From Bdellovibrionota bacterium (GTDB taxonomy: Bacteria; Bdellovibrionota_C; UBA2361; JBGSMV01), in NCBI GenBank assembly GCA_044356455.1, contig JBIKWF010000105.1, positions 1 through 15,856 on the forward strand: 15,856 bases of DNA, in the 5' to 3' direction. Shown here piece after piece: positions 2,243 through 14,860 of this stretch; position 1 is the first letter of the stretch; the number at the start of each line of letters is the position of its first letter. A program made the position numbers and the translations under genes. The notes below the pieces were generated by a model. That model did no database searches. It saw only the letters and a program-made list of their open reading frames with translations, and was not told where the DNA came from.

Positions 2243-3562
2243 GTGCATACGTACTCTTTTACTTCGAGTCTCTCGAAGGCATTTTTTTCTGTCGCTGCTC
2301 TATTAGCGATTTCGTTAAGTTGTGTAGCGACCGAGACATGCGCTCAGACATTAGAAACGCTATCACCAACGCAGTCCACCACAGGAGATAGACTAGGGCA
2401 CAGTGCAAGTGTCTCGGGCCGACGTCTCGTAATGGGGGCACCGCTTAGCGACACACCGCTTCTTAACGCAGGCGCCGTTTACGCATATTACATTGACTCT
2501 TTCTCCTCCCGATTCGACGGTCGCTTGCTTCCCTCTGACCCCAGTACGGGAAGTAATTTTGGAGCCGCGGTAAGCGTAAGCGGCGATTTCGTAGCTATTG
2601 GAGCTCCGCTTGAAGATCGCGGCATCAGTGTAGATGTCGGTTCAGTCTATGTTTTCAAGCGGCTTCCTCAAGGCTGGGTGCAGCAGGCAAAAGTATTGGC
2701 TCCAACTCCAGCGGCTGGTCAGCGTTTTGGCTTTTCGGTTGCGCTCGTGGGAAATGATCTTCTCGTGGGAGCACCTGGCGAAGCCTCTCAACGGGGGTCC
2801 ATCTACCGCTTTAAGTCAGTAGTGGGCACGTGGACTTACCAAGAGCGATGGGACCCCTCAAATCCGATTCTTGCTCAGAACTTTGGTCATGCGCTGGCGT
2901 TTGATGGAACATGGGCGGCTGTTGGCATGCTTCAAAACGCGCCTGAAGCGTCGAACCCGGGCCGGGTACACATGTACTTGAACATGGGCGGAACCTTTTC
3001 TGAAGCTCAAGTTATTCTTCCGACAGGTGGCCATCTTGATGACCGCGCAGGTTCGAGCCTTGCCCTGTCATCCAACCTTTTAGTTGTTGGAGCGCGTGGA
3101 CTCAATAGTGGCGCGGTGAACAATGGCGGCGCCTTTGTATTCCAGCTTCAAACGGGAATCTGGACTCAGGCTCAGATCTTGACTCCTGGAACGACCCAGG
3201 CAAATCAGTTCGCTGGCTTTTCCGTTGCAGCCCTGGGTGGATTCACTCCCGGCACGGAGATCTCCCTTGGCGCGCCTTATTTTAATGGAGCGGCTTCGGA
3301 TACGGGAGCGGTCTATGCCTTTTACCGGGTAGGCAATAGCTTTATTCAAACTGCTGTCGTGCGTGGAAGCGCCGAAGAGGTAGGAGATCTTTTTGGATCT
3401 GCCCTTGGCCTTACTAAAATCAAGGCCACGACACGTGCTCTTTACGGCGCACCTGGCGACAATGCGCGTGGGACAGACTCCGGGCTCGGCTATCTTTCCA
3501 GGGCGGTGCCACGCTACGCTGAAGCAGTCCGTTTTGTATGCCCGTTACCTGATGACTGCTAG
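2243..3562 (+). CDS. Secreted FG-GAP repeat (integrin-alpha-like beta-propeller) protein
   Basis: N-terminal hydrophobic signal-like segment; seven FGxS/AV...GAP...GxVY repeats (GDRLGHS, SNFGAAV, QRFGFSV, QNFGHAL, DRAGSSL, QFAGFSV, DLFGSAL); SD GGGAGGG at 2229-2235 before GTG. Confidence 0.9.
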   Translation: MHTYSFTSSLSKAFFSVAALLAISLSCVATETCAQTLETLSPTQSTTGDRLGHSASVSGRRLVMGAPLSDTPLLNAGAVYAYYIDSFSSRFDGRLLPSDPSTGSNFGAAVSVSGDFVAIGAPLEDRGISVDVGSVYVFKRLPQGWVQQAKVLAPTPAAGQRFGFSVALVGNDLLVGAPGEASQRGSIYRFKSVVGTWTYQERWDPSNPILAQNFGHALAFDGTWAAVGMLQNAPEASNPGRVHMYLNMGGTFSEAQVILPTGGHLDDRAGSSLALSSNLLVVGARGLNSGAVNNGGAFVFQLQTGIWTQAQILTPGTTQANQFAGFSVAALGGFTPGTEISLGAPYFNGAASDTGAVYAFYRVGNSFIQTAVVRGSAEEVGDLFGSALGLTKIKATTRALYGAPGDNARGTDSGLGYLSRAVPRYAEAVRFVCPLPDDC

Positions 3563-3614
3563 GGAACCTCTGAACGAGCCCTCCTTCGTGGTATTAGTGG
3601 TTGGTTTTCATCAA

Positions 3615-4391
3615 TCACTTCCCGGCCGTATACTTTCGCGCCTGACGCCAGAGAAGTTCAAAATGTTCCAAATAGCCCCGCGCCACGGACCGATTCCAAA
3701 TCCTGATTATGAGGACCTGTGGGGCATAGGTCTCTATGGTGGTAAGCTCAGGCGTGATGCGCGTATAGGTGGGCGAAGTCAGGGCACCAGAAATAGTGCG
3801 AAGCTCATTACCCTTCTCTCTGGCGAAACGCTCTTTAAAGAGCTGAGAAGCAGCCTCTGGCGCGATGAGGCGTTTGCTGATCTTTTGTGATTGTCCTTCA
3901 TCTCGGTAACGCTGATAGAAAGGGCCAACTACCCTATAAAAATCTTCATCACTGGCCCCTCCTATCACACGCACCACGCCATCACAGCGCTTTGCTGAGT
4001 GAAGCACGGTGATGAGGTTATTAAAAAACTCTTCTGGGCCAAAATGCGTCGTCACTTCAATCTTATCCTGAGATCGGTTCTCAAGAGCAGTCAGAGCCGG
4101 AACGAGCTGCTCGGCATAAGCCGCGCGCTGGGCTTCAAGAGCGACGAGGACAGAAGGCGACGCAGCCTGAAAGACCCGCCTTCCGCGTTGCAACACAAAT
4201 GAAGCCAGGCTACGCCTCGAGAGCACATCGAGCGCGGCATAGACGTATTGGCGATGGAGCGCTAACTCGCGAATGAGAGGCCCCGCATTCGTAGGACCAA
4301 GTTTGAGCAAGCAAAGGTAAACCCGCGCCTCAGTTTTCGTGAGGTCAAAGCGCATGAGCTGCGACGCGAGCTGGCCTTCTGATAATGTCAT
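3615..4391 (-). CDS. TrmB-family transcriptional regulator (N-terminal winged HTH)
   Basis: LTKTEARVYLCLLKLGPTNAGPLIRELALHRQYVYAALDVL...FQAASP matches the TrmB HTH pattern. The C-terminus (IRIWNRSVARGYLEHFELLW) resembles that of TrmB-like proteins. Confidence 0.88.
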   Translation of the reverse strand: MTLSEGQLASQLMRFDLTKTEARVYLCLLKLGPTNAGPLIRELALHRQYVYAALDVLSRRSLASFVLQRGRRVFQAASPSVLVALEAQRAAYAEQLVPALTALENRSQDKIEVTTHFGPEEFFNNLITVLHSAKRCDGVVRVIGGASDEDFYRVVGPFYQRYRDEGQSQKISKRLIAPEAASQLFKERFAREKGNELRTISGALTSPTYTRITPELTTIETYAPQVLIIRIWNRSVARGYLEHFELLWRQARKYTAGK

Positions 4392-4472
4392 AACTATTCT
4401 GACGATATCTATAACTAGTTAGTAAATATACGTTTTATATATTGTTATTGTCATCATGAAATTTTTGACGAT
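4385..4472. promoter_or_regulatory. Two imperfect palindromic TCA-N9-TGACGAT boxes, candidate operators of the TrmB-like regulator
   Basis: ATGTCA-taactattc-TGACGAT (4385-4406) and TCATCA-tgaaatttt-TGACGAT (4451-4472), 66 bp apart in an AT-rich divergent intergenic region. Confidence 0.55.
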
Positions 4473-4493
4473 TATGACTGCAGGCCCTACCAT
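4465..4493 (+). promoter_or_regulatory. Sigma70-type promoter for the substrate-binding protein gene
   Basis: TTGACG (4465-4470), 17-bp spacer, TACCAT (4488-4493); SD GAGGT at 4510-4514 before ATG 4520. Confidence 0.55.
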
Positions 4494-4519
4494 GAGGCGT
4501 CTCATTGGTGAGGTATCTC

Positions 4520-5662
4520 ATGAAATCCCTATGGCATCGGCGATTCTTTTGCGTAGCAGTTGCTTCGCTTTTGTTCCCCACGCAACCTCAGGTTCTCGCG
4601 CAGGACAGCGGGACTCCTGAGCCGCTGAGAGTGGGTTGGATTGGGGGCATGTCTGGCCCGACTGCAAAATATGGTGCCTACGAATCTGCAATTCTCGCCG
4701 AGGAGGATATTAACCGTACTGGGGGTATCAACGGTCGTCCCTTAAAGCTTATCTTTGAAGATGGAAAAGGGAACGGGAAAACAGCGGTTAATGCGGCGCT
4801 CAAGCTGATGAGCATTGACCGCGTCACCTTTATTGTAGGTGGCCACAGCACCCCAGAGAGTCTTCCTATGGCATCCGTGGTTGATAGGAAAGGAGCCCTT
4901 ATGCTTGCGGCAATTACTTCCTCTCCTCGGCTCACTGGAGTAAGCAAGAATTTTTTTCGCGTGACCGCAGTAAGTTTGCAAGGAGCAGCGGCGCTTGCCA
5001 AGTACGCTGTCGAAACCAAGAAACTTGGTTCATTCGGAATCATCTATGAGCTTACAGACTACGCACAACCTCTCGCTGAAGGCTTTCGAGATGACGTAGC
5101 TTCGCGCGGGGGAAAAATCTCGGTATTCGAAGGGCTTCCTCCAGGCGAACTGGATGCTCGTCCCTTGCTTCTAAAAATGAAAGTTGCGGGAGTTACCTGC
5201 CTCTATCTTGGCATACAGAATCCCGAACTCGCGGGCATAGTTCTCCAGCAAGCAAGAGAAATCGCCTTTCATCCCCTTGTCCTGGGAAACGAAATTACAG
5301 GCAACGCAGTCTCCACCGCAGGAGAGAAAAAGCCCCTGTTTGAGGGACTGGTTTTCGCAGAACCAACTTTCAATCTTGAAGCTGAAAAGACGAAAGCATT
5401 TGTTGAAAGATATAAAAAGCGCTTTAGCGTGAACTCACTCCCCTACGGCTTTTGGTCCGCAGAAGCCTATGACGCCGTGAGGCTGCTTGCAGAAACCATG
5501 GCACGCTGCGGAGAGGAAGTTTCCGCGGTAAGAAGTTGCCTTCTTCAGACTAAGAACTATTCAGGAGTCTCGGGGCCGATTTCGATAAATACCCAGGGTG
5601 ATGGCGTAAGAGATTATCAGCTAAAAAAAATCTCAGATGGAATTCCCATGCCAGAGGCCTAA
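4520..5662 (+). CDS. ABC transporter substrate-binding protein, LivJ/LivK-like (type I periplasmic binding fold)
   Basis: Signal peptide, then LRVGWIGGMSGPTAKYG...LAEEDINRTGGINGRPLKLIFEDGK, FFRV, AEAYDAVRLLAE and YSGVSGPISINTQGD. Start placed at ATG 4520 because of the SD; the track starts at TTG 4505. Confidence 0.92.
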   Translation: MKSLWHRRFFCVAVASLLFPTQPQVLAQDSGTPEPLRVGWIGGMSGPTAKYGAYESAILAEEDINRTGGINGRPLKLIFEDGKGNGKTAVNAALKLMSIDRVTFIVGGHSTPESLPMASVVDRKGALMLAAITSSPRLTGVSKNFFRVTAVSLQGAAALAKYAVETKKLGSFGIIYELTDYAQPLAEGFRDDVASRGGKISVFEGLPPGELDARPLLLKMKVAGVTCLYLGIQNPELAGIVLQQAREIAFHPLVLGNEITGNAVSTAGEKKPLFEGLVFAEPTFNLEAEKTKAFVERYKKRFSVNSLPYGFWSAEAYDAVRLLAETMARCGEEVSAVRSCLLQTKNYSGVSGPISINTQGDGVRDYQLKKISDGIPMPEA

Positions 5663-5683
5663 ATATTGGTTATTGCGAGCGAT

Positions 5684-5712
5684 TTGATTAGCCGCCGGAC
5701 CGCAAGTAAATT
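5684..5712 (+). promoter_or_regulatory. Candidate leaderless sigma70-type promoter
   Basis: TTGATT (5684-5689), 17-bp spacer, TAAATT (5707-5712), then 7 nt to ATG 5720; no SD. Confidence 0.5.
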
Positions 5713-5719
5713 AGCGCTC

Positions 5720-6538
5720 ATGTCCATCGGCCCCGAAAGCAGTAACCCTACCGGCGCTCCTAAACGCGCAACACCTCTTCGAAAGGACACATCGTCAGAT
5801 TCTGTGCCTCCTCGCGCTCCCCTCGCGAAACTTCCGCCGCCTCCACGTGAGATCCAACCGTCTGAGTTCTCTCGCCCCTTTATTCAAGACCACCTTAGAG
5901 CACGAGCCTCTTCTGGCCTGGCAAGAAGCTCAGGCGCACTCGCTCACATCTGCACTAGACTTGCATCTCTCACTGAAAGAATGCATGCCTTGGCATCCGA
6001 TGTGGGATGGCTGCCCTTCTATTCTCTTCAGGAGCAAGACGGCGACCCCATCGGGTATTTTGAACTTTCGCGTGCCAGGAGAGATAACAAGTCCTTCATT
6101 ATTTTAAAGGAAGTTCGGCACGCAAAAATTTCATTGGTCGAAAAATCCTATGGCCCAGAACACGAGCTCACCCAGGAAGAGGAAGCGCTCGATGCCTTTC
6201 TCACTAAGATGGATTGCGAAACTGAGCAGCAGTTCCATACCGAGCTAAGCTCAAAGCAAGTCGAAATCGGCTTTGCCGTCGCGTGCACGCACTCCGAAGG
6301 ATTTTGGAATACTTCGTCTCGGACATTTGCGCTCACCGATGGAATCTTGCATGCGCTGCTTATCGATCTACCAAAGGGTGGCGTGAGCCTCGGATATCCT
6401 AATCTCCATTCCTGGCAACCTGACTCAGAGACAACTGAGCCACTTCCCCTTTTAGCCAAAGATTTAGACCTCTTGCTAGGCCCGGGAGATGCGCTTCTGA
6501 CCTGGGCTGACGAGGTACTTTCGAAAGAGATGATTTAG
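5720..6538 (+). CDS. Hypothetical protein with Pro/Ser-rich, probably disordered N-terminus
   Basis: Long ORF filling the gap between genes; ATG 5720 preferred over TTG 5666 because of promoter geometry; no family recognised. Confidence 0.75.
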   Translation: MSIGPESSNPTGAPKRATPLRKDTSSDSVPPRAPLAKLPPPPREIQPSEFSRPFIQDHLRARASSGLARSSGALAHICTRLASLTERMHALASDVGWLPFYSLQEQDGDPIGYFELSRARRDNKSFIILKEVRHAKISLVEKSYGPEHELTQEEEALDAFLTKMDCETEQQFHTELSSKQVEIGFAVACTHSEGFWNTSSRTFALTDGILHALLIDLPKGGVSLGYPNLHSWQPDSETTEPLPLLAKDLDLLLGPGDALLTWADEVLSKEMI

Positions 6539-6689
6539 TCTCGTTTGCATTGCACACGAGAAAACACTATTTGCAAAGCATTGCTTGGGCTTTAATTCCT
6601 AATAAATCTTTAGGCTTACCTGATTACCTGCTAAGCGGCGGATATTGGTAGAGCGCTCCACAACAGAGGTCGATAGAAACTCTAAGTCT

Positions 6690-8483
6690 ATGAAATACCT
6701 CTGCGTTACCTTTCTTACAGCCGCATCGATTCTCATGCTGACTCTTCCTGCGGCTTCGCAGACCCTTCTTGCGAGTCAAAGCAGCACCCCAGAACCTCCC
6801 GACGGGGTAAGCTCTTCACCTGACATCAGCTCTGATAGTCGCTTAATGGTGTTCTCCTCAACCTCGACCAACCTGGTTTCAGGAGATACCAACGGAGCTG
6901 CTGATGTTTTCTTGCATACACAGGAGAATCTCCTTGCAACGCCCAATCCCGATGGACTGAGACAAACTACGCTCATTTCAAAAGGGCTAGGCGGACTACC
7001 CGCTGATGGCGCAAGCTCATCTCCTCGCATCAGCGACAATGGGCGCTGGATTGTCTTTTCGTCCACCGCAACAAATCTTGTCGCCTCGGATACGAACGGT
7101 AAATCAGATATTTTCCTGTATAATAGCGATAATCTCTCGCTCAGAAGAATTAGCTTACCTATCACCGTCTTTGGAGTTGAAACAGGGGAAGCTGATGGCG
7201 ATAGTGTAACCCCCGCTATCTCAGCCGACGGGTGCTACATTGCCTACGCTTCTGATGCCACTAATCTTCTTGCCCTTGGACAAGACGGGTCCTCGGTCAC
7301 TGACACTAATGGGAAACGCGATATTATTCTCTACCTCAATATGGCTGAGTCCTCGTGTGGATTCTCCCAACTTCAAAATGAACTCATAAATGTAGGAGCA
7401 GGCGGACAACTAGCGAACGACGACAGCTCACTCCCTCGCATAGGTGGCAATGCCTACGTTGCCTTTGTTTCTGCCGCCACTAATCTCGTAGCCGATGATA
7501 CAAACGGCTTTGCCGACGTCTTTATAAGAGATCGGAGACTCTCAATTGGAGATGGCCGCACCACTTTGCTTGTCTCCCGATCAACGACAGGATCTCCTGG
7601 GAATGGAGGAAGCTACTCAATCGATATCGAGGAAGGTGGCAACTTTGCCTTTGATTCCGACGCCTCTGACCTTGTCGCCTCTGATTCAAACGGTAAGCGA
7701 GATGTTTTTCGTCGCGCGATTACATCGAGCCGAACGCTCACTGATTCTCTGCTTGTAAGCTCAAAGATAAATGGAACTCAAGGGAATGGAGACAGCAGCT
7801 CTCCTTCTCTGGTCAATGGAGCGAACTACATCGCATTCGCCTCTGATGCGACGAACCTGAGTGAAAGAACCGACTGCAACAATGCACGAGACATTTTTGT
7901 GAGGGATTATCTGCTTGGCACTCTAAGGCGCGTGAACCTTAGCACTTCAGGCTATCAGGCAGACACGGGCTCAAACAGTGACCTACCAGCGCTGGCCCCG
8001 GGAGCGCTGCTTGTGGCATATGAGTCATCCTCGGACCTTCTACCTTCTGATACCAACCAGAACGTGGATATCTATGCCTCAGTAGCCTCGCAAGATCCCC
8101 AGTCTCGCGATAATCCCCTTTCAGCGGGAGTTCGACTTGATGAGCCGCCGGATGTCTGCGTCAAAGGCGCCGCAGCTTCTGTCTTCATGGAGTATTTCTC
8201 GGAAGTGGCATCGAGCTCATTTACTCACCCGAGTGCCTCAGCAACGAGCACGCGCTGCCCTGCGAACAAGATCTGCTACAGCGTTGACCTTACCCCTACC
8301 GGGAAAGGCGCCCGAGAGCGAGATAGCGCTAAAAAGCTCGTGAAACGGAATCAGGCCTCTTTTACCAAGCTCAAGCCTGGGGCATACCGAGTTTCGTTCC
8401 GAGCGAGTGGTCAGGCCGGCAATCGAACTATCACTACCAATCGAAGCCCGAAGCGAAAAATTACTATCCGGGCACGTCGATAA
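6690..8483 (+). CDS. Secreted TolB-like/PD40-repeat beta-propeller protein with basic C-terminal domain
   Basis: Signal peptide MKYLCVTFLTAASILMLTLPAASQ; seven repeats of the P-x-IS-x-DG...F-x-S-x-ATNLV-xx-DTNG-xx-DVF type. Not a true tolB: no TolB N-domain recognised and no tol-pal context. Confidence 0.88.
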   Translation: MKYLCVTFLTAASILMLTLPAASQTLLASQSSTPEPPDGVSSSPDISSDSRLMVFSSTSTNLVSGDTNGAADVFLHTQENLLATPNPDGLRQTTLISKGLGGLPADGASSSPRISDNGRWIVFSSTATNLVASDTNGKSDIFLYNSDNLSLRRISLPITVFGVETGEADGDSVTPAISADGCYIAYASDATNLLALGQDGSSVTDTNGKRDIILYLNMAESSCGFSQLQNELINVGAGGQLANDDSSLPRIGGNAYVAFVSAATNLVADDTNGFADVFIRDRRLSIGDGRTTLLVSRSTTGSPGNGGSYSIDIEEGGNFAFDSDASDLVASDSNGKRDVFRRAITSSRTLTDSLLVSSKINGTQGNGDSSSPSLVNGANYIAFASDATNLSERTDCNNARDIFVRDYLLGTLRRVNLSTSGYQADTGSNSDLPALAPGALLVAYESSSDLLPSDTNQNVDIYASVASQDPQSRDNPLSAGVRLDEPPDVCVKGAAASVFMEYFSEVASSSFTHPSASATSTRCPANKICYSVDLTPTGKGARERDSAKKLVKRNQASFTKLKPGAYRVSFRASGQAGNRTITTNRSPKRKITIRARR

Positions 8484-8853: not shown

Positions 8854-11800
8854 ATGACGCAACGAACAAACGAAACTGCGCGTTCGAATTCATTGGCCGC
8901 GCTTTCACCGGCAGGTGACATTGCGCTCTCTTCAGAGCACCGAGTGCTCCTACCTGGACTTGCGTTCATCGCTGAGAAATTGCACGTCCTCGCAAGGGCG
9001 GAGCGCCTCGTGGCCACGCGCTTTGAACCAGAGAAGCGCGTAACGGCCTTCATGTCTCTTGCTGGTCATTATAAAGAACTTAAGGACGAAAGCGGATTCG
9101 CTCGATGCGTTGATAGTGCTTGGACGCTCATATCAAAGAAACCCGACGTGGGCTCGGGCCTTGACTCCCGAGTAGTTTCTGAATTCATTTCAAGATGCCT
9201 GACTCTAGGCCTTCTGGCCCGAGCGAAAGCGGCGCTTGTCATGTATTCCGGCGATGGAGTGAATGAGACACCAACGGCAGACGTCACGAAAGGGGTGGCA
9301 CTCGCGTTCGAGAAGGCCGGAAAGCGCAAGGAAGCCTTAGTTCTCTATAAGCAAGCGCTCGCGGCTCAATGGAAAAAAAGCCCGAAACTCGAACGCCGCA
9401 TCGCAAAACTTGAACGCGACATCGAACTTAGCGCCATGACCCCGTCCCAGCGAAAGCGATTTCGCGTCCGTTCACTTTCAAGGCGCATTCTTGGGCACGA
9501 AGTCCTTGCAGAGGACGCCAGCACCCGCCGCAAGCCGGCACTCTACCAAAAACTTGCTAAGCTTCAGCTTCAGGCTGACCAGCCTGCTGACGCGAGGCGT
9601 TCACTCGTACTGGCGCGCACGTTCGCACTACAAGTTACCCCGCCTGATAAAGAACTACTGGTTGCGATAATGCAACAGCAAGCTACCTCAGGCTTCCATC
9701 TCGACGCATCGAAAACCATGAGAGTGCTGCCGGAGATGGGGGAGCAAGACCTTGAAAAACTGGCTCCCATCCTTAAAACTTTCGCAGCTCACCTTTCGTC
9801 CCGGCAAATGAATTCCTTAGTATCTTTTCTTGCGTCGAAGGGATTTGCACGCACCGCGGCCAACATTCTTACGGAAGCGAAATGTGCTGGGCCAGCCCTC
9901 ACGAGCCGCATTCGTGAGTTTGAAGCTGCCCCTATGGGGCTCATGGGAGGATCCCTAGAATCCTTCTGCAAAACGCTCGGGCTCGCACTCTCGAGCTCTG
10001 AGGCGCGCTTGCATAAGCGAGCGCGCTCCGTAGCCTCACATGCAATCGACACCCTTCTAAAGGCCGCACCTGAGGATACGGCAACGGCAGCAAGGCGCCT
10101 TCCTGAGATCGCCGTCGTCTTGGCGCGAGGAGATAGCAAGGCGTTGGCGTATAAAGCGCTGGAGAAAGCTCAAACTCTCGCCTCGTCAGCCACAGAGCCC
10201 TTCACTGAAGAGCAGACCAGGTGGTTCCACGAGAGCTTGGCGAAGGCTTGGGTTCATCTAGGAGAAATTTCCAAGGCGAAGGACCATCTTAATAAATCTC
10301 TAGAGGGCAATGAACTTGATGCGTACTCCCTCAACCAGTTCATGGACGTGGCGCTAGCGGCAGGCCAACCGATCCTGGCAGAGGAAGCGCTACGGCAAGC
10401 CATTGCGTCGCATCACTCTGTGGATATTTCGTGGCTCACGAAATGCTCTCAAAGGTTTATTGCGCTAGGAAGGGTAGACGAAGGCAGGGCGTTTTCCGAG
10501 CGTGCGACGAAACTAGCGCTGGGTGCCTACCTCGAGAAGGGCAAGTGGGACGAATCTGTGTTTGCTCTTCTAAAGTCGGAGGTGGAGCTACTCGCTCCCT
10601 CTGGGAGAGCGCTGAGCGAAGCGTCTGATTGGAACGCCTATATTGCAGGGTGGAATAGCGCCTCAAAATCCGAGCAAGAACAAATCATTTCCGCCTTTAG
10701 TTACGGCGTCCCTGAGATCTACAAAGAACGCCTCCTTGCCAAGGTACCCGCGGAACGTCGCCCTATGATGGTTGCTCAGTGGGACAACCTGCAAGTCCGA
10801 GGGGCCGATGAAGCTCCTCGCGAGGTCTTTGACCGCACCAAGGCAGGGTTGCTTGAGTGCTTAGAATCTCCCTCGGCAGAGAACTCCGCACGGGTAAAAG
10901 TCATAATTGACACTCTGCAAGAGTTAAATCAGAAAGAGGCCCAAGACTTACTACTCGAGCATGCTACTCGCTTGGGCAGGCTCGCAGCAGAGCGGAAATG
11001 GAAGCATTGCCACCCAGCAACGGTTCGCCTTATCGACGCGGCTCTTGGCACCAAACGCTTAAGGGCCCAGGAGCTCGTCGCGGAACTCGTCGCCTCTCCG
11101 AATACGCCCCAACATCTTGCGCACCGGGGAATCGATCGGCTTGTAGAGCTTGGCTACCTGAGCCCTGACCTAAAGAAATGGGAGCAGCGCGTAGCACATA
11201 AAGTCCCGGCTCTTATGTTGGATGAAGGCATTGCCTTTAACGCCAAAGAGTTAATTCGTTTTCTGATGGCCCGGGGCATAACACCCTCTGGGGAGGTGCT
11301 TGCCTTCGTGACTTCCCCCACGTGGGAGGCCGGGGCACTTGCTCAAGGTAAAGACACCGTCGCCGCGCGCCTTCGTTCATTGCAAGATCTTGGCGCCACC
11401 TTTGAAGCGATGCCCAGCGCGCCGGCCCTTATCCAGTCCCTAGCAAAAGATAAGCAGCAGGCGATGGCCTACTACGTGCTGCACATTGGAAAGTCTCGGT
11501 TTAACCTCATCAACAACTACACTTTCGAAAAGTTTTTCGAAGTGATCGAAATCGCGTCTAATCTGAAGGTGTCAGAGCGCGTCCTTGAGACGTTCCACAA
11601 AGCTCTCTGTGTGGCGGGACACACTCCTGACGCCGCATCGGCTATCATAGCGAACCTACGAAACGGCGCGGCCCCGTTCGCGAGCTCCGCCGCTCAAGAA
11701 CTTGCTACTCGCATCCGGCTTGATGTCTCCGACTCTGCGAAGCTAAACGCAGCCCATCGTGAAGCGGGTGGCGCCCTCGGGAGGGAGCAGCTTGGAGTCT

Positions 11801-13179
11801 GCCTTCGCTCTAGCCTTTACCGTAGATTCCTTCTAGCTGAACATCATGAGTCCCCCCATTTAAGAAGTCTTCAATCCGCAAAGACACTCGCGGAGCGTGG
11901 TCAAGCATTGGTAGAAATCGAGAGCTCGCACCCCGAGTACCTTGAAAGAGGAATTCAGTATCTCGATCAGCGCTTCGCAGAAATGAGGCGCAAGCTTCCA
12001 TTCACTGCCACGGCACGCGAGATTCTTACGAATGTGGAAGTTACCGTGAACTCTCAAGAGTTGCTCGAGCGGGTAGAAGAAAAACGGACTGCGCTCATCC
12101 ACGCAAAAAACAGCATCCTTCGCGCCCTCAAGGGAGAGAATCCTCAACTTGCTGCGTTAGAGAAGGGGCTCAGGCAGAGGCGTCGGGCGCTACGTGCTCT
12201 TCAAGAGGGGCTTGCCCACAACCCGGCTCTTCAGTCGCGAATCGAAGAAGTCTCAAGGGAAATCAGCGCCCTTGAGGAGAATAGTAGCGCTCTTGGACTT
12301 TCCTACATCGACGAGCGCTACGCCAACCTTGATGAAAATGCCCGGAGGGAGGCAATCGCCGCCGAGCAGCAAGAACTTGTCTCGATAGAAGAGAAGGAGC
12401 CCGCACTAGTCTTTATTGCCCTCGTCATGGAATCCGTTGGTGCTGAAAGTATTACCGAAGACGAACTTTCTCTCCTTAGAGAGATTAGCTCACACCTAAG
12501 CCATCCGTTTGAGGTACTGCGAGAGATCTCGAAGCTTGATACACGGGCAAGAGCCATCTCGAAGGAACAAGAGGTCCACTACCGCCTTATCCCTAAGCGA
12601 GACCTGGTCACGATGGCGCGTTTTGCGGACTCAAAGATCTGCTGCTTTTCGTCCACAAATTACGACATGCAGGTAGCACATAACACCCCCAATAAGTACT
12701 GGGTGGCCGCTATTCTTGCAGATCCGCTTTCGTTTGTTTTTGAAATTCAGGACGTACCTGAGTCCCAGGAATCGGGTTCCTTCTTAGGACGGCCCGTAGT
12801 TCAGAATCTCGGGTTCAATTTTGGAATGTTCGGCACCGATTCCGAAGAAAACCTAACCATATTTTTAAACGGGGTGTACCTGTCGACTGGAAATGACGCG
12901 CAGAGTTCTGCTTCGGTACTTTCCGCGACTGAAACGCTGCTTTCCCGGCCCATGCGCGCGGCTTGGCAGGCGGTTGCCACAAAACATGGGGGCAATATAG
13001 GAAGCGCTATTTCTGGCTACAATCCGGAAGCATTTGAAGGAACACGCCTCAGAGCTTTGACTGATAAGCGCGGTCATGACCCAGTGCTGAACGTCTACGA
13101 CGATTTAGGTACTAAGGTAAACCAAGAATGTACCTTTAAGGCCCTTCGAAAAAAAGTGCCTAAAGAAAAGAGTCAATGA
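8854..13179 (+). CDS. Large hypothetical protein (1441 aa): TPR-like/helical N-terminal half, coiled coil, C-terminal alpha/beta domain
   Basis: Uninterrupted 4.3-kb ORF; TPR-like segments (VALAFEKAGKRKEALVLYKQAL; LAKAWVHLGEISKAKDHLNKSL); coiled coil LQSRIEEVSREISALEE; beta-rich C-terminus with ADSKICCFSS. No signal peptide evident. Confidence 0.88.
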   Translation: MTQRTNETARSNSLAALSPAGDIALSSEHRVLLPGLAFIAEKLHVLARAERLVATRFEPEKRVTAFMSLAGHYKELKDESGFARCVDSAWTLISKKPDVGSGLDSRVVSEFISRCLTLGLLARAKAALVMYSGDGVNETPTADVTKGVALAFEKAGKRKEALVLYKQALAAQWKKSPKLERRIAKLERDIELSAMTPSQRKRFRVRSLSRRILGHEVLAEDASTRRKPALYQKLAKLQLQADQPADARRSLVLARTFALQVTPPDKELLVAIMQQQATSGFHLDASKTMRVLPEMGEQDLEKLAPILKTFAAHLSSRQMNSLVSFLASKGFARTAANILTEAKCAGPALTSRIREFEAAPMGLMGGSLESFCKTLGLALSSSEARLHKRARSVASHAIDTLLKAAPEDTATAARRLPEIAVVLARGDSKALAYKALEKAQTLASSATEPFTEEQTRWFHESLAKAWVHLGEISKAKDHLNKSLEGNELDAYSLNQFMDVALAAGQPILAEEALRQAIASHHSVDISWLTKCSQRFIALGRVDEGRAFSERATKLALGAYLEKGKWDESVFALLKSEVELLAPSGRALSEASDWNAYIAGWNSASKSEQEQIISAFSYGVPEIYKERLLAKVPAERRPMMVAQWDNLQVRGADEAPREVFDRTKAGLLECLESPSAENSARVKVIIDTLQELNQKEAQDLLLEHATRLGRLAAERKWKHCHPATVRLIDAALGTKRLRAQELVAELVASPNTPQHLAHRGIDRLVELGYLSPDLKKWEQRVAHKVPALMLDEGIAFNAKELIRFLMARGITPSGEVLAFVTSPTWEAGALAQGKDTVAARLRSLQDLGATFEAMPSAPALIQSLAKDKQQAMAYYVLHIGKSRFNLINNYTFEKFFEVIEIASNLKVSERVLETFHKALCVAGHTPDAASAIIANLRNGAAPFASSAAQELATRIRLDVSDSAKLNAAHREAGGALGREQLGVCLRSSLYRRFLLAEHHESPHLRSLQSAKTLAERGQALVEIESSHPEYLERGIQYLDQRFAEMRRKLPFTATAREILTNVEVTVNSQELLERVEEKRTALIHAKNSILRALKGENPQLAALEKGLRQRRRALRALQEGLAHNPALQSRIEEVSREISALEENSSALGLSYIDERYANLDENARREAIAAEQQELVSIEEKEPALVFIALVMESVGAESITEDELSLLREISSHLSHPFEVLREISKLDTRARAISKEQEVHYRLIPKRDLVTMARFADSKICCFSSTNYDMQVAHNTPNKYWVAAILADPLSFVFEIQDVPESQESGSFLGRPVVQNLGFNFGMFGTDSEENLTIFLNGVYLSTGNDAQSSASVLSATETLLSRPMRAAWQAVATKHGGNIGSAISGYNPEAFEGTRLRALTDKRGHDPVLNVYDDLGTKVNQECTFKALRKKVPKEKSQ

Positions 13180-13298: not shown

Positions 13299-13554
13299 TT
13301 CGAGGCACTAAACGTCGAGTTGGCCCGCGAGGTGCTAAGAGTGACGATGTCGTCGATGGCTTGAACGCAAGATGCACATCCAAACTGAGGCGCTAATGCG
13401 CCAGGGTATCGATCGTTTGCGCGCGTATCAGATCTACGTCTCGGCCGCCCGTAATCTAGAGCGAATCGGTGATCACGCGACGAATATCGCGGAAGACGCG
13501 ATCTATCTCGTTGAGGGTGAGATCGTACGGCATAGGTTGGGGAAGGAAACTTAA
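13299..13554 (+). pseudogene. phoU: Truncated, doubly frameshifted phosphate signalling protein PhoU (second PhoU repeat)
   Basis: Three frames join to FEALNVELAREVL / KSDDVVDGLNA / KMHIQTEALMRQ...AARNLERIGDHATNIAEDAIYLVEGEIVRH, the PhoU C-terminal signature. Single-base losses near 13337 and 13369; most of the N-terminal half is absent. Confidence 0.85.
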
Positions 13555-13555
13555 T

Positions 13556-14341
13556 CTAGTTCGTGCGGGCTACCGGCCAGGCTCCACCCACCGAGCCGAA
13601 ATGAGGTCGTAATTCATCGAACGTTTCCGGCCATCCGACTAATTTACCTTCCTGATCCGTATAGACGCACCCAAGGTCCTGCGTGGGAAACGTTAACAAT
13701 TCGGTCTCGGCCTTCTCGATCAGTGTTAGCCAATCTTTTTTTAGCTGCACCGCGTCGACGGGTCGCACCGTGCGTTCAATTGCGAGGGAGTCAGGGGAGA
13801 TGCGCGCGTTGCGGCGCAGTTGCGAGACGATCATGTCGGGGGTGAACCCGGGGTCTTTACCGCACGCGGCCCAGATCATGCAGGCCAGGGACATGGTTGA
13901 TTCATTCAGATGGATTGCATCGATGATATCGCGCACTTCGCTACGTCCAGCGAGCGCCAAACATTTATTCGTTGCAAGATCCACCGCGTGCAGCCGGTAT
14001 CCCATCACACGATCTCGTTCGATCGGGAAAAATCGAAACGCAGAGTCATTAGCCCAGTCTAGCTTAAGTGTTGACCCAGCCTTACTGATTACAGCCGTTA
14101 TAAACCCTGGTTGATTGACATTGACATCAACTAAGAATCCAGCAGCCTCAAGTGCAGCCCGATCGAGTGCGGAACTACGTTGCACCGCCTCGGCTGAGGC
14201 ATGGAATAGATCGATATCAGCGGAGAATCTCGGAGAATTAGAAGCAGCGTTAATTGCAACGCCACCCGCTACATAACTATTCGGGTCACGATTCTTACCG
14301 ATGATCGAAAATACTAAGATCTGGAATTCATCAATCGGCAT
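13556..14341 (-). CDS. AbiEii/AbiGii-family nucleotidyltransferase, putative toxin
   Basis: Motifs YVAGGVA, RFSADIDLF and NKCLALAGRSEVRDIID (GG, RxSxDxD, K..R..RDxxD); SD AAGGAGG at 14358-14352. Confidence 0.88.
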   Translation of the reverse strand: MPIDEFQILVFSIIGKNRDPNSYVAGGVAINAASNSPRFSADIDLFHASAEAVQRSSALDRAALEAAGFLVDVNVNQPGFITAVISKAGSTLKLDWANDSAFRFFPIERDRVMGYRLHAVDLATNKCLALAGRSEVRDIIDAIHLNESTMSLACMIWAACGKDPGFTPDMIVSQLRRNARISPDSLAIERTVRPVDAVQLKKDWLTLIEKAETELLTFPTQDLGCVYTDQEGKLVGWPETFDELRPHFGSVGGAWPVARTN

Positions 14342-14649
14342 ATCAAGTCCGCCTCCTTAAACCCCTCTCGCCCACCGTAACGCTTTAGTCCTGCAATTAC
14401 TTCCGGGATAAGCGCTTCCGTTACCACGGCCTCTTTTCGAAAATGCCAGAAGGCTCGTGCGAAGTATTTATCAAATGCTACCTGGGCGTACGCCACCGCA
14501 CGGCGCATAGCGCGTTCACTCGACTCATCATGCTTTGATCCGATCGCCGCGCGCAGCGCAGAGTTGATTCGTGCTTGGTACCCCGGCCCCGCTGCTCGAA
14601 AGTGCTCAAGGACGGCGGAATCTAGCTTTATATATATGCCATGGCGCAT
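14314..14649 (-). CDS. Putative antitoxin: BrnA-family (RHH) domain fused to a ~60-aa helical domain
   Basis: IYIKLDSAVLEHFRAAGPGYQARINSALRAAI matches the BrnA signature (xRLDxDVxxxFxxxGxGYQxRINxxLR), followed by AFDKYFARAFWHFR...LKRYGGREG; overlaps the toxin gene by 28 bp. Confidence 0.85.
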   Translation of the reverse strand: MRHGIYIKLDSAVLEHFRAAGPGYQARINSALRAAIGSKHDESSERAMRRAVAYAQVAFDKYFARAFWHFRKEAVVTEALIPEVIAGLKRYGGREGFKEADLICRLMNSRS

Positions 14650-14655
14650 ATCTGG

Positions 14656-14684
14656 ATTATATATATATCTTCCCGTGTAAGCAA
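14656..14684 (-). promoter_or_regulatory. Leaderless sigma70-type promoter of the TA operon
   Basis: Minus strand TTGCTT (14684-14679), 17-bp spacer, TATAAT (14661-14656), then 6 nt to ATG 14649; no SD. Confidence 0.75.
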
Positions 14685-14860
14685 CGTGTGGATTGAGCGG
14701 CTCACCATGGTAGCGGGACCTGAACTCGATGTTTGAGCTGAACGGAACGAGACTAGCTCGAGCTCTAACCAGAACGATTCCAACAATTTGAATTATCTGC
14801 TTTAGAAAAAGCCCTCCCCACCCGGGACACTCCTCATCATTAAAAAAGGCTGGGTCAGAT

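Follow-up and report, generated by a model that had tools for sequence, protein, structure and literature searches.

Mix-and-match of toxin-antitoxin (TA) domains is well known. In the AbiEi-AbiEii, MenA3-MenT3, SanaTA and RlegTA systems (COG5340 + COG2253), reported as overlapping operons with the antitoxin gene first, a nucleotidyltransferase (NTase) of the DUF1814 family carrying motifs I-IV is paired with a two-domain antitoxin, in which an N-terminal DNA-binding winged helix-turn-helix (HTH) is joined to an AbiEi C-terminal domain (PMC3985639; bioRxiv 10.64898/2026.01.19.700257). MenT1, MenT3, MenT4, and AbiEii are reported to extend tRNA 3′ ends, stalling translation. In the M. tuberculosis pair MenA1-MenT1 (Rv0078B-Rv0078A), the gene for the DUF1814 NTase follows that of a small helical partner that lacks the AbiEi fold; MenA1, a 7.4-kDa protein with no DNA-binding domain, is reported to neutralise MenT1 through induced auto-phosphorylation, and the pair is described as lacking autoregulation (PMC11375011). 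BrnT-BrnA systems (COG2929 + COG3514/COG5304) have brnT upstream of brnA and a ribbon-helix-helix (RHH) domain at the C-terminus of BrnA (PMC5086665; PMC11980606; PMC2701414). BrnA has been reported among the least modular antitoxins, and one TASmania cluster of BrnA has BrnT as the partner in 99.88% of pairs.

The window analysed here, a stretch of 15,856 nt from a Bdellovibrionota bacterium, contains two minus-strand genes that we read, from their sequences and predicted structures, as probably forming an undescribed TA operon, with an NTase as toxin, a helical domain here called CFW as antitoxin, and a BrnA-type RHH as repressor ("CFW" and, below, "KGG-like" are labels coined in this analysis). 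The upstream gene (14314..14649) encodes a candidate antitoxin/repressor of 111 aa, RHH followed by CFW (AlphaFold model, pLDDT 90), and the downstream gene (13556..14341) a DUF1814/AbiEii-type NTase of 261 aa, the candidate toxin. The two open reading frames overlap by 28 nt, as an earlier note on this DNA had described. That note also gave the pair its own promoter, and the elements are there: a candidate -10, TATAAT (14656..14661, minus strand), ends 6 nt before the ATG, 17 nt from a candidate -35, TTGCTT (14679..14684, minus strand). A promoter scanner returned 0 sites on the window, because the -35 fits the consensus at only 3/6 positions, and did not corroborate them. A transcript starting from this -10 would probably be leaderless. 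A Shine-Dalgarno sequence for the NTase, AAGGAGG (14352..14358, minus strand), lies within the 3′ end of the upstream gene, 10 nt before the NTase start. The fusion is neither unique to this assembly nor an artefact, as the earlier note had allowed that it might be: it is present in two further assemblies (60% identity), and a contig from another study (run X3) covers 14063-14754, comprising promoter, fusion, and NTase start, with 0 differences, which rules out misassembly.

Tail to tail with the NTase gene, at 13372-13554 on the plus strand, lies a 60-aa C-terminal PhoU remnant (E 3e-8) that ends one base from the NTase stop; two related stretches are found on contigs C79 and C117, and the remnant may mark an insertion site. 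Further away are a helical ORF of 1441 aa (8854-13179, plus strand) with sub-threshold TPR matches only and, at 2243-8483, an FG-GAP repeat protein, a TrmB-type regulator divergent from a periplasmic binding protein, a 290-aa orphan, and a PD40 propeller protein.

The downstream protein matches Pfam AbiEii at E 8.8e-7 (29.5 bits; cut-off 22.5), gives nine weak AbiEii matches in PADLOC (best E 2.8e-5), and has no match in NCBIfam; with family-model scores this low, its substrate may differ. The AbiEii motifs are intact, as had been claimed: motifs I-IV, as defined in PMC3985639, are all present (G26-G27; R38-x-S40-x-D42-x-D44; K126 to R133; R137-D138-x-x-D141). Across 212 aligned NTase rows, which overlap and are not independent, G26, R38, S40, K126, R133, R137, D138, and D141 are invariant (212/212), D42 is kept in 209/212 and D44 in 208/212; G27 was left uncounted there and is A in some aligned relatives. 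D44 is replaced by T or N in 2/5 distant alphaproteobacterial homologues, and such distant NTases occur in twelve alphaproteobacterial plasmid records. NTase relatives number 3,077 among 4,141 candidates. PDB sequence searches with the NTase and with its alignment gave nothing significant; Foldseek searches with its AlphaFold model (pLDDT 93.8) returned JHP933, MenT4, MenT3, and MenT1 as the top folds (E 1e-7 to 2e-4, TM 0.4-0.6). In structural alignment the NTase shares 15-18% identity with MenT1 and is about 65 aa longer.

One residue bears on mechanism. S40 lies two residues ahead of the DxD, at the same spacing as T65 of AbiEii, and occupies the phosphoacceptor position that is T39 in MenT1. 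Its reported equivalents, MenT3 S78 and MenT1 T39, are described as auto-phosphorylated when the antitoxin binds, and the aligned residue is reported as phosphorylated in MenT1, MenT3, and AbiEii alike. PMC11375011 examined COG2253 and COG4849 hits and found Ser/Thr strictly conserved at this site, and MenT4 is reported to show no phosphorylation; the presence of S40 therefore does not show that the NTase described here is phosphorylated.

The part of the partner that is constant across loci is the helical CFW domain of 60 aa, not BrnA. In the window it spans approximately residues 44-106 (14332..14520, minus strand; delimited by alignment) and has no family assigned. The earlier note had recognised a second helical domain and proposed this C-terminal part, rather than the RHH, as the real partner of the NTase, and the distribution of the two supports it. 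Of 102 NTase loci collected, 95 were kept, six having been removed as partial matches and one because tblastn gave no hit; an ORF with the FW motif lies upstream of the NTase in 94 of the 95, and L049 has one just beyond the distance limit. An HMM check found an open CFW domain upstream in 79/79 GTDB loci, a count that favours close relatives, since these loci come from the top 80 of 578. Among 89 distinct loci (the 95 less five duplicates and L049, with five architecture labels set by eye), the partner is a BrnA RHH joined to CFW at 29, a KGG-like peptide joined to CFW at 33, and CFW alone at 27, so the domain does stand by itself upstream of NTases; 60/89 partners have no BrnA part. The Pfam KGG match of the KGG-like peptides is weak (E 0.08 and 0.43). 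At 72 of the 89 loci the partner gene runs 10 nt into the start of the NTase gene, and partner and NTase identities are correlated (Spearman 0.74 over 86 loci, a value inflated by kinship). These three partner architectures bear out the domain shuffling that had been suggested.

The coupling also holds in the other direction. In a reverse search of the host's order, 29 of 30 fetched CFW loci were re-detected, and an NTase start followed in 29/29; the NTase was intact in 21, broken in 7, and cut by a contig end in 1. A broken NTase thus lies beside an open CFW domain at 7/28 readable loci, and none has a broken CFW domain; as the NTase offers a target four times the size, 7 against 0 is weak by itself (about 0.8^7 = 0.2). 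One of the seven partners, at L130, has a truncated N-terminus. These loci bear on a reading in which the roles are reversed as in HepT-MntA, with the CFW protein as a toxin that the NTase inactivates by nucleotidylation. NTase antitoxins are reported to exist (PMC7641770), and record P0238 joins CFW to a minimal NTase domain, although this is one record from a single contig and probably a read-through. Against the reversal, CFW persists as an open domain at those seven loci, where the NTase has been lost; the DNA-binding module sits on CFW, as expected of an antitoxin, and the nearest folds of the NTase are toxins. We consider this reversal very unlikely and retain the NTase as the candidate toxin.

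By record titles the pair is spread over about a dozen phyla, mostly uncultured; among named records the closest, at 69% identity, carries the label Bdellovibrionota, and a CFW match occurs in 28/91 genomes of the host's order. Among five alphaproteobacterial loci examined, the Bosea partner of a distant NTase is a clear CFW relative (E 3.6e-9), and the other four are plausible relatives only (E 7e-4 to 0.03, single comparisons). At three alphaproteobacterial plasmid loci (L168, L171, L172) a different conserved N-terminal module, RVEVLVP, is found in the partners of distant NTases, one of which gives an RHH_8 match at E 0.03. L009 carries two CFW-NTase pairs within 3 kb, at 229-387 and 2846-3004. 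Besides P0238, CFW is joined to a whole NTase in P0237 and, in the 249-aa P0144 (single contig), to an NTase without its catalytic half; all three records may be read-throughs.

A further reading makes the NTase an RNA-repair or stress enzyme that is not toxic, with CFW as its activating subunit or regulator and not an antitoxin. The pair is chromosomal, in ordinary neighbourhoods; JHP933, the top fold match, is titled only putative nucleotidyltransferase; and P0237 holds CFW and NTase in a single chain of 344 aa, although this record is single-contig and its CFW is missing the final helix. Patchy presence (19/61 relatives), frequent decay, and distant copies in one genome fit an addictive module, as does the likely capture of a TA repressor, and we regard the enzyme reading as improbable.

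If the operon is a TA system, its antitoxin sets it apart from those described. Like the partners in the AbiEi-AbiEii group, the 111-aa protein is encoded first in an overlapping operon, has two domains, and has a predicted N-terminal DNA-binding module, but it consists of RHH and CFW where they have a winged HTH and an AbiEi C-terminal domain. AbiEi models gave no match in Pfam (30 partners) or PADLOC (29 partners), and judged by the sequence of its antitoxin the locus is not an AbiE system. CFW itself had no significant match in Pfam across 30 partners and another 108 homologues, apart from BrnA in 10 and AbiEii in a single deletion fusion, and none in NCBIfam, PADLOC (version 2.0.0 of which has no model for the partner), or PDB sequences. 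Fold searches were similarly unrevealing: the two-domain 111-aa model had no Foldseek match at E 0.001 and a best Z of 5.6, to generic helices, and matches in the ESM Atlas were to hypothetical-protein clusters only (feature scores under 0.9). A complex prediction for NTase and CFW scored 0.00 in two runs and is no evidence either way.

Two small helical partners of DUF1814 NTases invite comparison. DUF6922 (PF21956) is a small helical domain with an FW motif found directly before an AbiEii-type NTase at 5/5 loci (L163-L167), and two of these (L164 and L166) add N-terminal modules that, by eye, appear to be RHH and HTH, a parallel architecture. No homology between DUF6922 and CFW was detected: hhalign gave a probability of 0.5% with a five-sequence profile, HMM comparisons gave E 0.02 or worse, and a PF21956 search of the host genome found no match. 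We found no paper using the term DUF6922. MenA1 is close in size to the solo CFW proteins, which are also about 68 aa; sequence searches of the PDB found no match for CFW, and fold searches with the two-domain model no clear one. MenAT1 differs from the RHH clade in its described lack of autoregulation, whereas these loci combine an RHH with an operator-like box. By analogy, the operon in the window likely works like MenAT1, with autoregulation added.

The added module is of BrnA type. The 111-aa protein matches Pfam BrnA_antitoxin (PF14384; E 8.9e-11, 42.5 bits, cut-off 26.1) over residues 6-35 (14545..14634, minus strand), close to the limits of residues 5-37 given earlier, and only at model positions 38-67 of 68, which correspond to the DNA-binding RHH half. 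Its structural matches to the RHH proteins CopASO (6iya, Z 4.7) and omega (1irq, Z 4.8) are weak and fall short of what the tool counts as reliable. On a quick NTase tree without outgroup, the RHH loci form one side of a branch (SH-aLRT 97), so a single origin is likely, with the direction of change inferred. The hybrid of BrnA and AbiEii that the earlier note proposed is therefore real as a fusion, but is no one-off; it is one clade of a large CFW-NTase family.

The fusion nevertheless stands outside the BrnTA family. RHH family and upstream palindrome are shared with BrnT-BrnA, but brnT is absent, the partner gene comes first, and the RHH is N-terminal. As had been noted, no window ORF resembles brnT; an HMM built from BrnT relatives found brnT in the flanks of 0/29 fusion loci. 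The N-terminal BrnA segment (a D.SD.PEL-like motif), which we infer to be the part that binds BrnT, is absent from all 29 fusions and present at 8/9 standalone BrnA loci. By its sequence, the fusion locus is not a BrnTA member. The host genome has one brnT, on another contig (C175; L103 1266-1755, minus strand), and the fusion is its only PF14384 match, which together leave room for a fusion that acts in trans as the BrnA antitoxin of that gene. However, that brnT is followed by an 86-aa gene of its own (without a Pfam match) and has no RTATATAY box, and the fusion lacks the segment just described; action in trans is judged so unlikely as to be scarcely credible. BrnA-like proteins also occur elsewhere in the class: in ten genomes (L149-L151, L155-L159, L161, L162), a PF14384 protein without brnT lies behind a long ORF (about 440-480 aa when complete within the locus), apparently in a housekeeping position.

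A link between the fusion and brnTA operons also lies in the DNA. RTATATAY lies upstream of 28/28 RHH-fusion loci, over a GC range of 0.29-0.65, and of 0/26 solo and 0/33 KGG loci (0/59; two loci with short upstream DNA were excluded), and is absent from those downstream control stretches long enough to test. At RHH genes the palindrome is mostly doubled, with a spacing of ~12 nt, over the -10 region, and the host genome (4.7 Mb) has a single double box, at the fusion locus. In the window, operator-like box 1, ATATATATAT (14659..14668), overlaps the candidate -10. Here and in L001 the second upstream box has decayed, and a box (box 2, 14629..14637) lies instead within codons 5-7 (ATA TAT ATA) of the RHH β strand, in the same codons in both; in long open frames, ATA accounts for 15% of the codons for Ile. 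On these two sequences, the coding box may be a compensating site. Since the RHH forms are one clade, 28/28 reflects a single event, and the seven brnT-brnA operons are the sole separate control. That control comprised 24 of 30 PF14384 loci from the phylum, with six known fusion loci left out: the exact box precedes brnT in 6/7 brnT-brnA operons, the seventh having one mismatch, and it is found at 5/5 fusions and upstream of 0/12 other PF14384 genes. As the simplest reading of these sequences, RHH and operator-like palindrome likely came together from a brnTA operon. The palindrome also supports the autoregulatory role that the earlier note had assigned to the RHH. No paper on the RTATATAY palindrome was found.

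These features suggest how the operon would work. A probably leaderless transcript would give the partner, and coupled translation the NTase; RHH dimers would repress the operon's own promoter through the palindrome, and CFW would hold the NTase off. Free NTase would be expected to behave like its described relatives, extending the 3′ ends of tRNAs and stalling translation. Given a TA system, neutralisation by the MenA1 route, in which CFW binds the NTase and Ser40 becomes auto-phosphorylated, is an analogy to which we give slightly less than an even chance; the MenT4 case means that this route is not universal. CFW could also protect without toxin phosphorylation, by plain sequestration or by action on the target, an alternative that differs from the preferred one in the last step only. 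MenA1 is reported also to neutralise MenT1 T39A by binding alone, and no mechanism is established in the literature for MenA4, whereas MenT1, MenT3, and AbiEii are all reported as phosphorylated at the residue aligned with S40. Protection without phosphorylation is a substantial possibility, held well short of even.

Anti-phage activity, which the earlier note had raised, found no support. Of 24 pattern matches in viral contigs, 0 were confirmed as CFW-NTase loci, and flanking genes show no defence-island pattern: among 95 flanking ORFs of 27 fusion loci, PADLOC gave 10 matches at E 1e-8 (no control rate), all scattered single components such as a reverse transcriptase, TnpB/Cas12f-like, DndA/SspA, and a helicase. 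S. agalactiae AbiE is likewise reported to give no protection against 32 coliphages, so the missing phage link does not exclude phage defence.

We found no paper on the CFW-NTase pair, which the TASmania and NetFlax supplementary tables, TADB, or DefenseFinder could list. What appears new, judged from the sequences, is a subfamily of DUF1814 NTases whose partner domain has no family assigned; one clade of it carries a likely BrnA repressor and an operator-like box. We tentatively go further, in a proposal that as a whole is plausible but rather doubtful: CFW would be a new class of DUF1814 antitoxin, unrelated to AbiEi, MenA1, or DUF6922, present in a dozen mostly uncultured phyla and acting by induced Ser40 auto-phosphorylation; one clade would have captured a complete regulatory cassette, the BrnA RHH with the TGTATATACA operator, which would also be that of brnTA operons in the phylum, and, in the window, the second box would lie in the very codons for the β strand with which the repressor reads DNA. 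For DUF1814 toxins it has been proposed that structurally unrelated antitoxins trigger toxin self-phosphorylation, and the authors of that model predict that this occurs widely. CFW, at 60 aa and with a different fold, would offer a direct test case for the prediction, and its candidate toxin has some 3,000 homologues. As read here, the locus would also be a case of joint transfer of a repressor with its operator from one TA family to an unrelated one.
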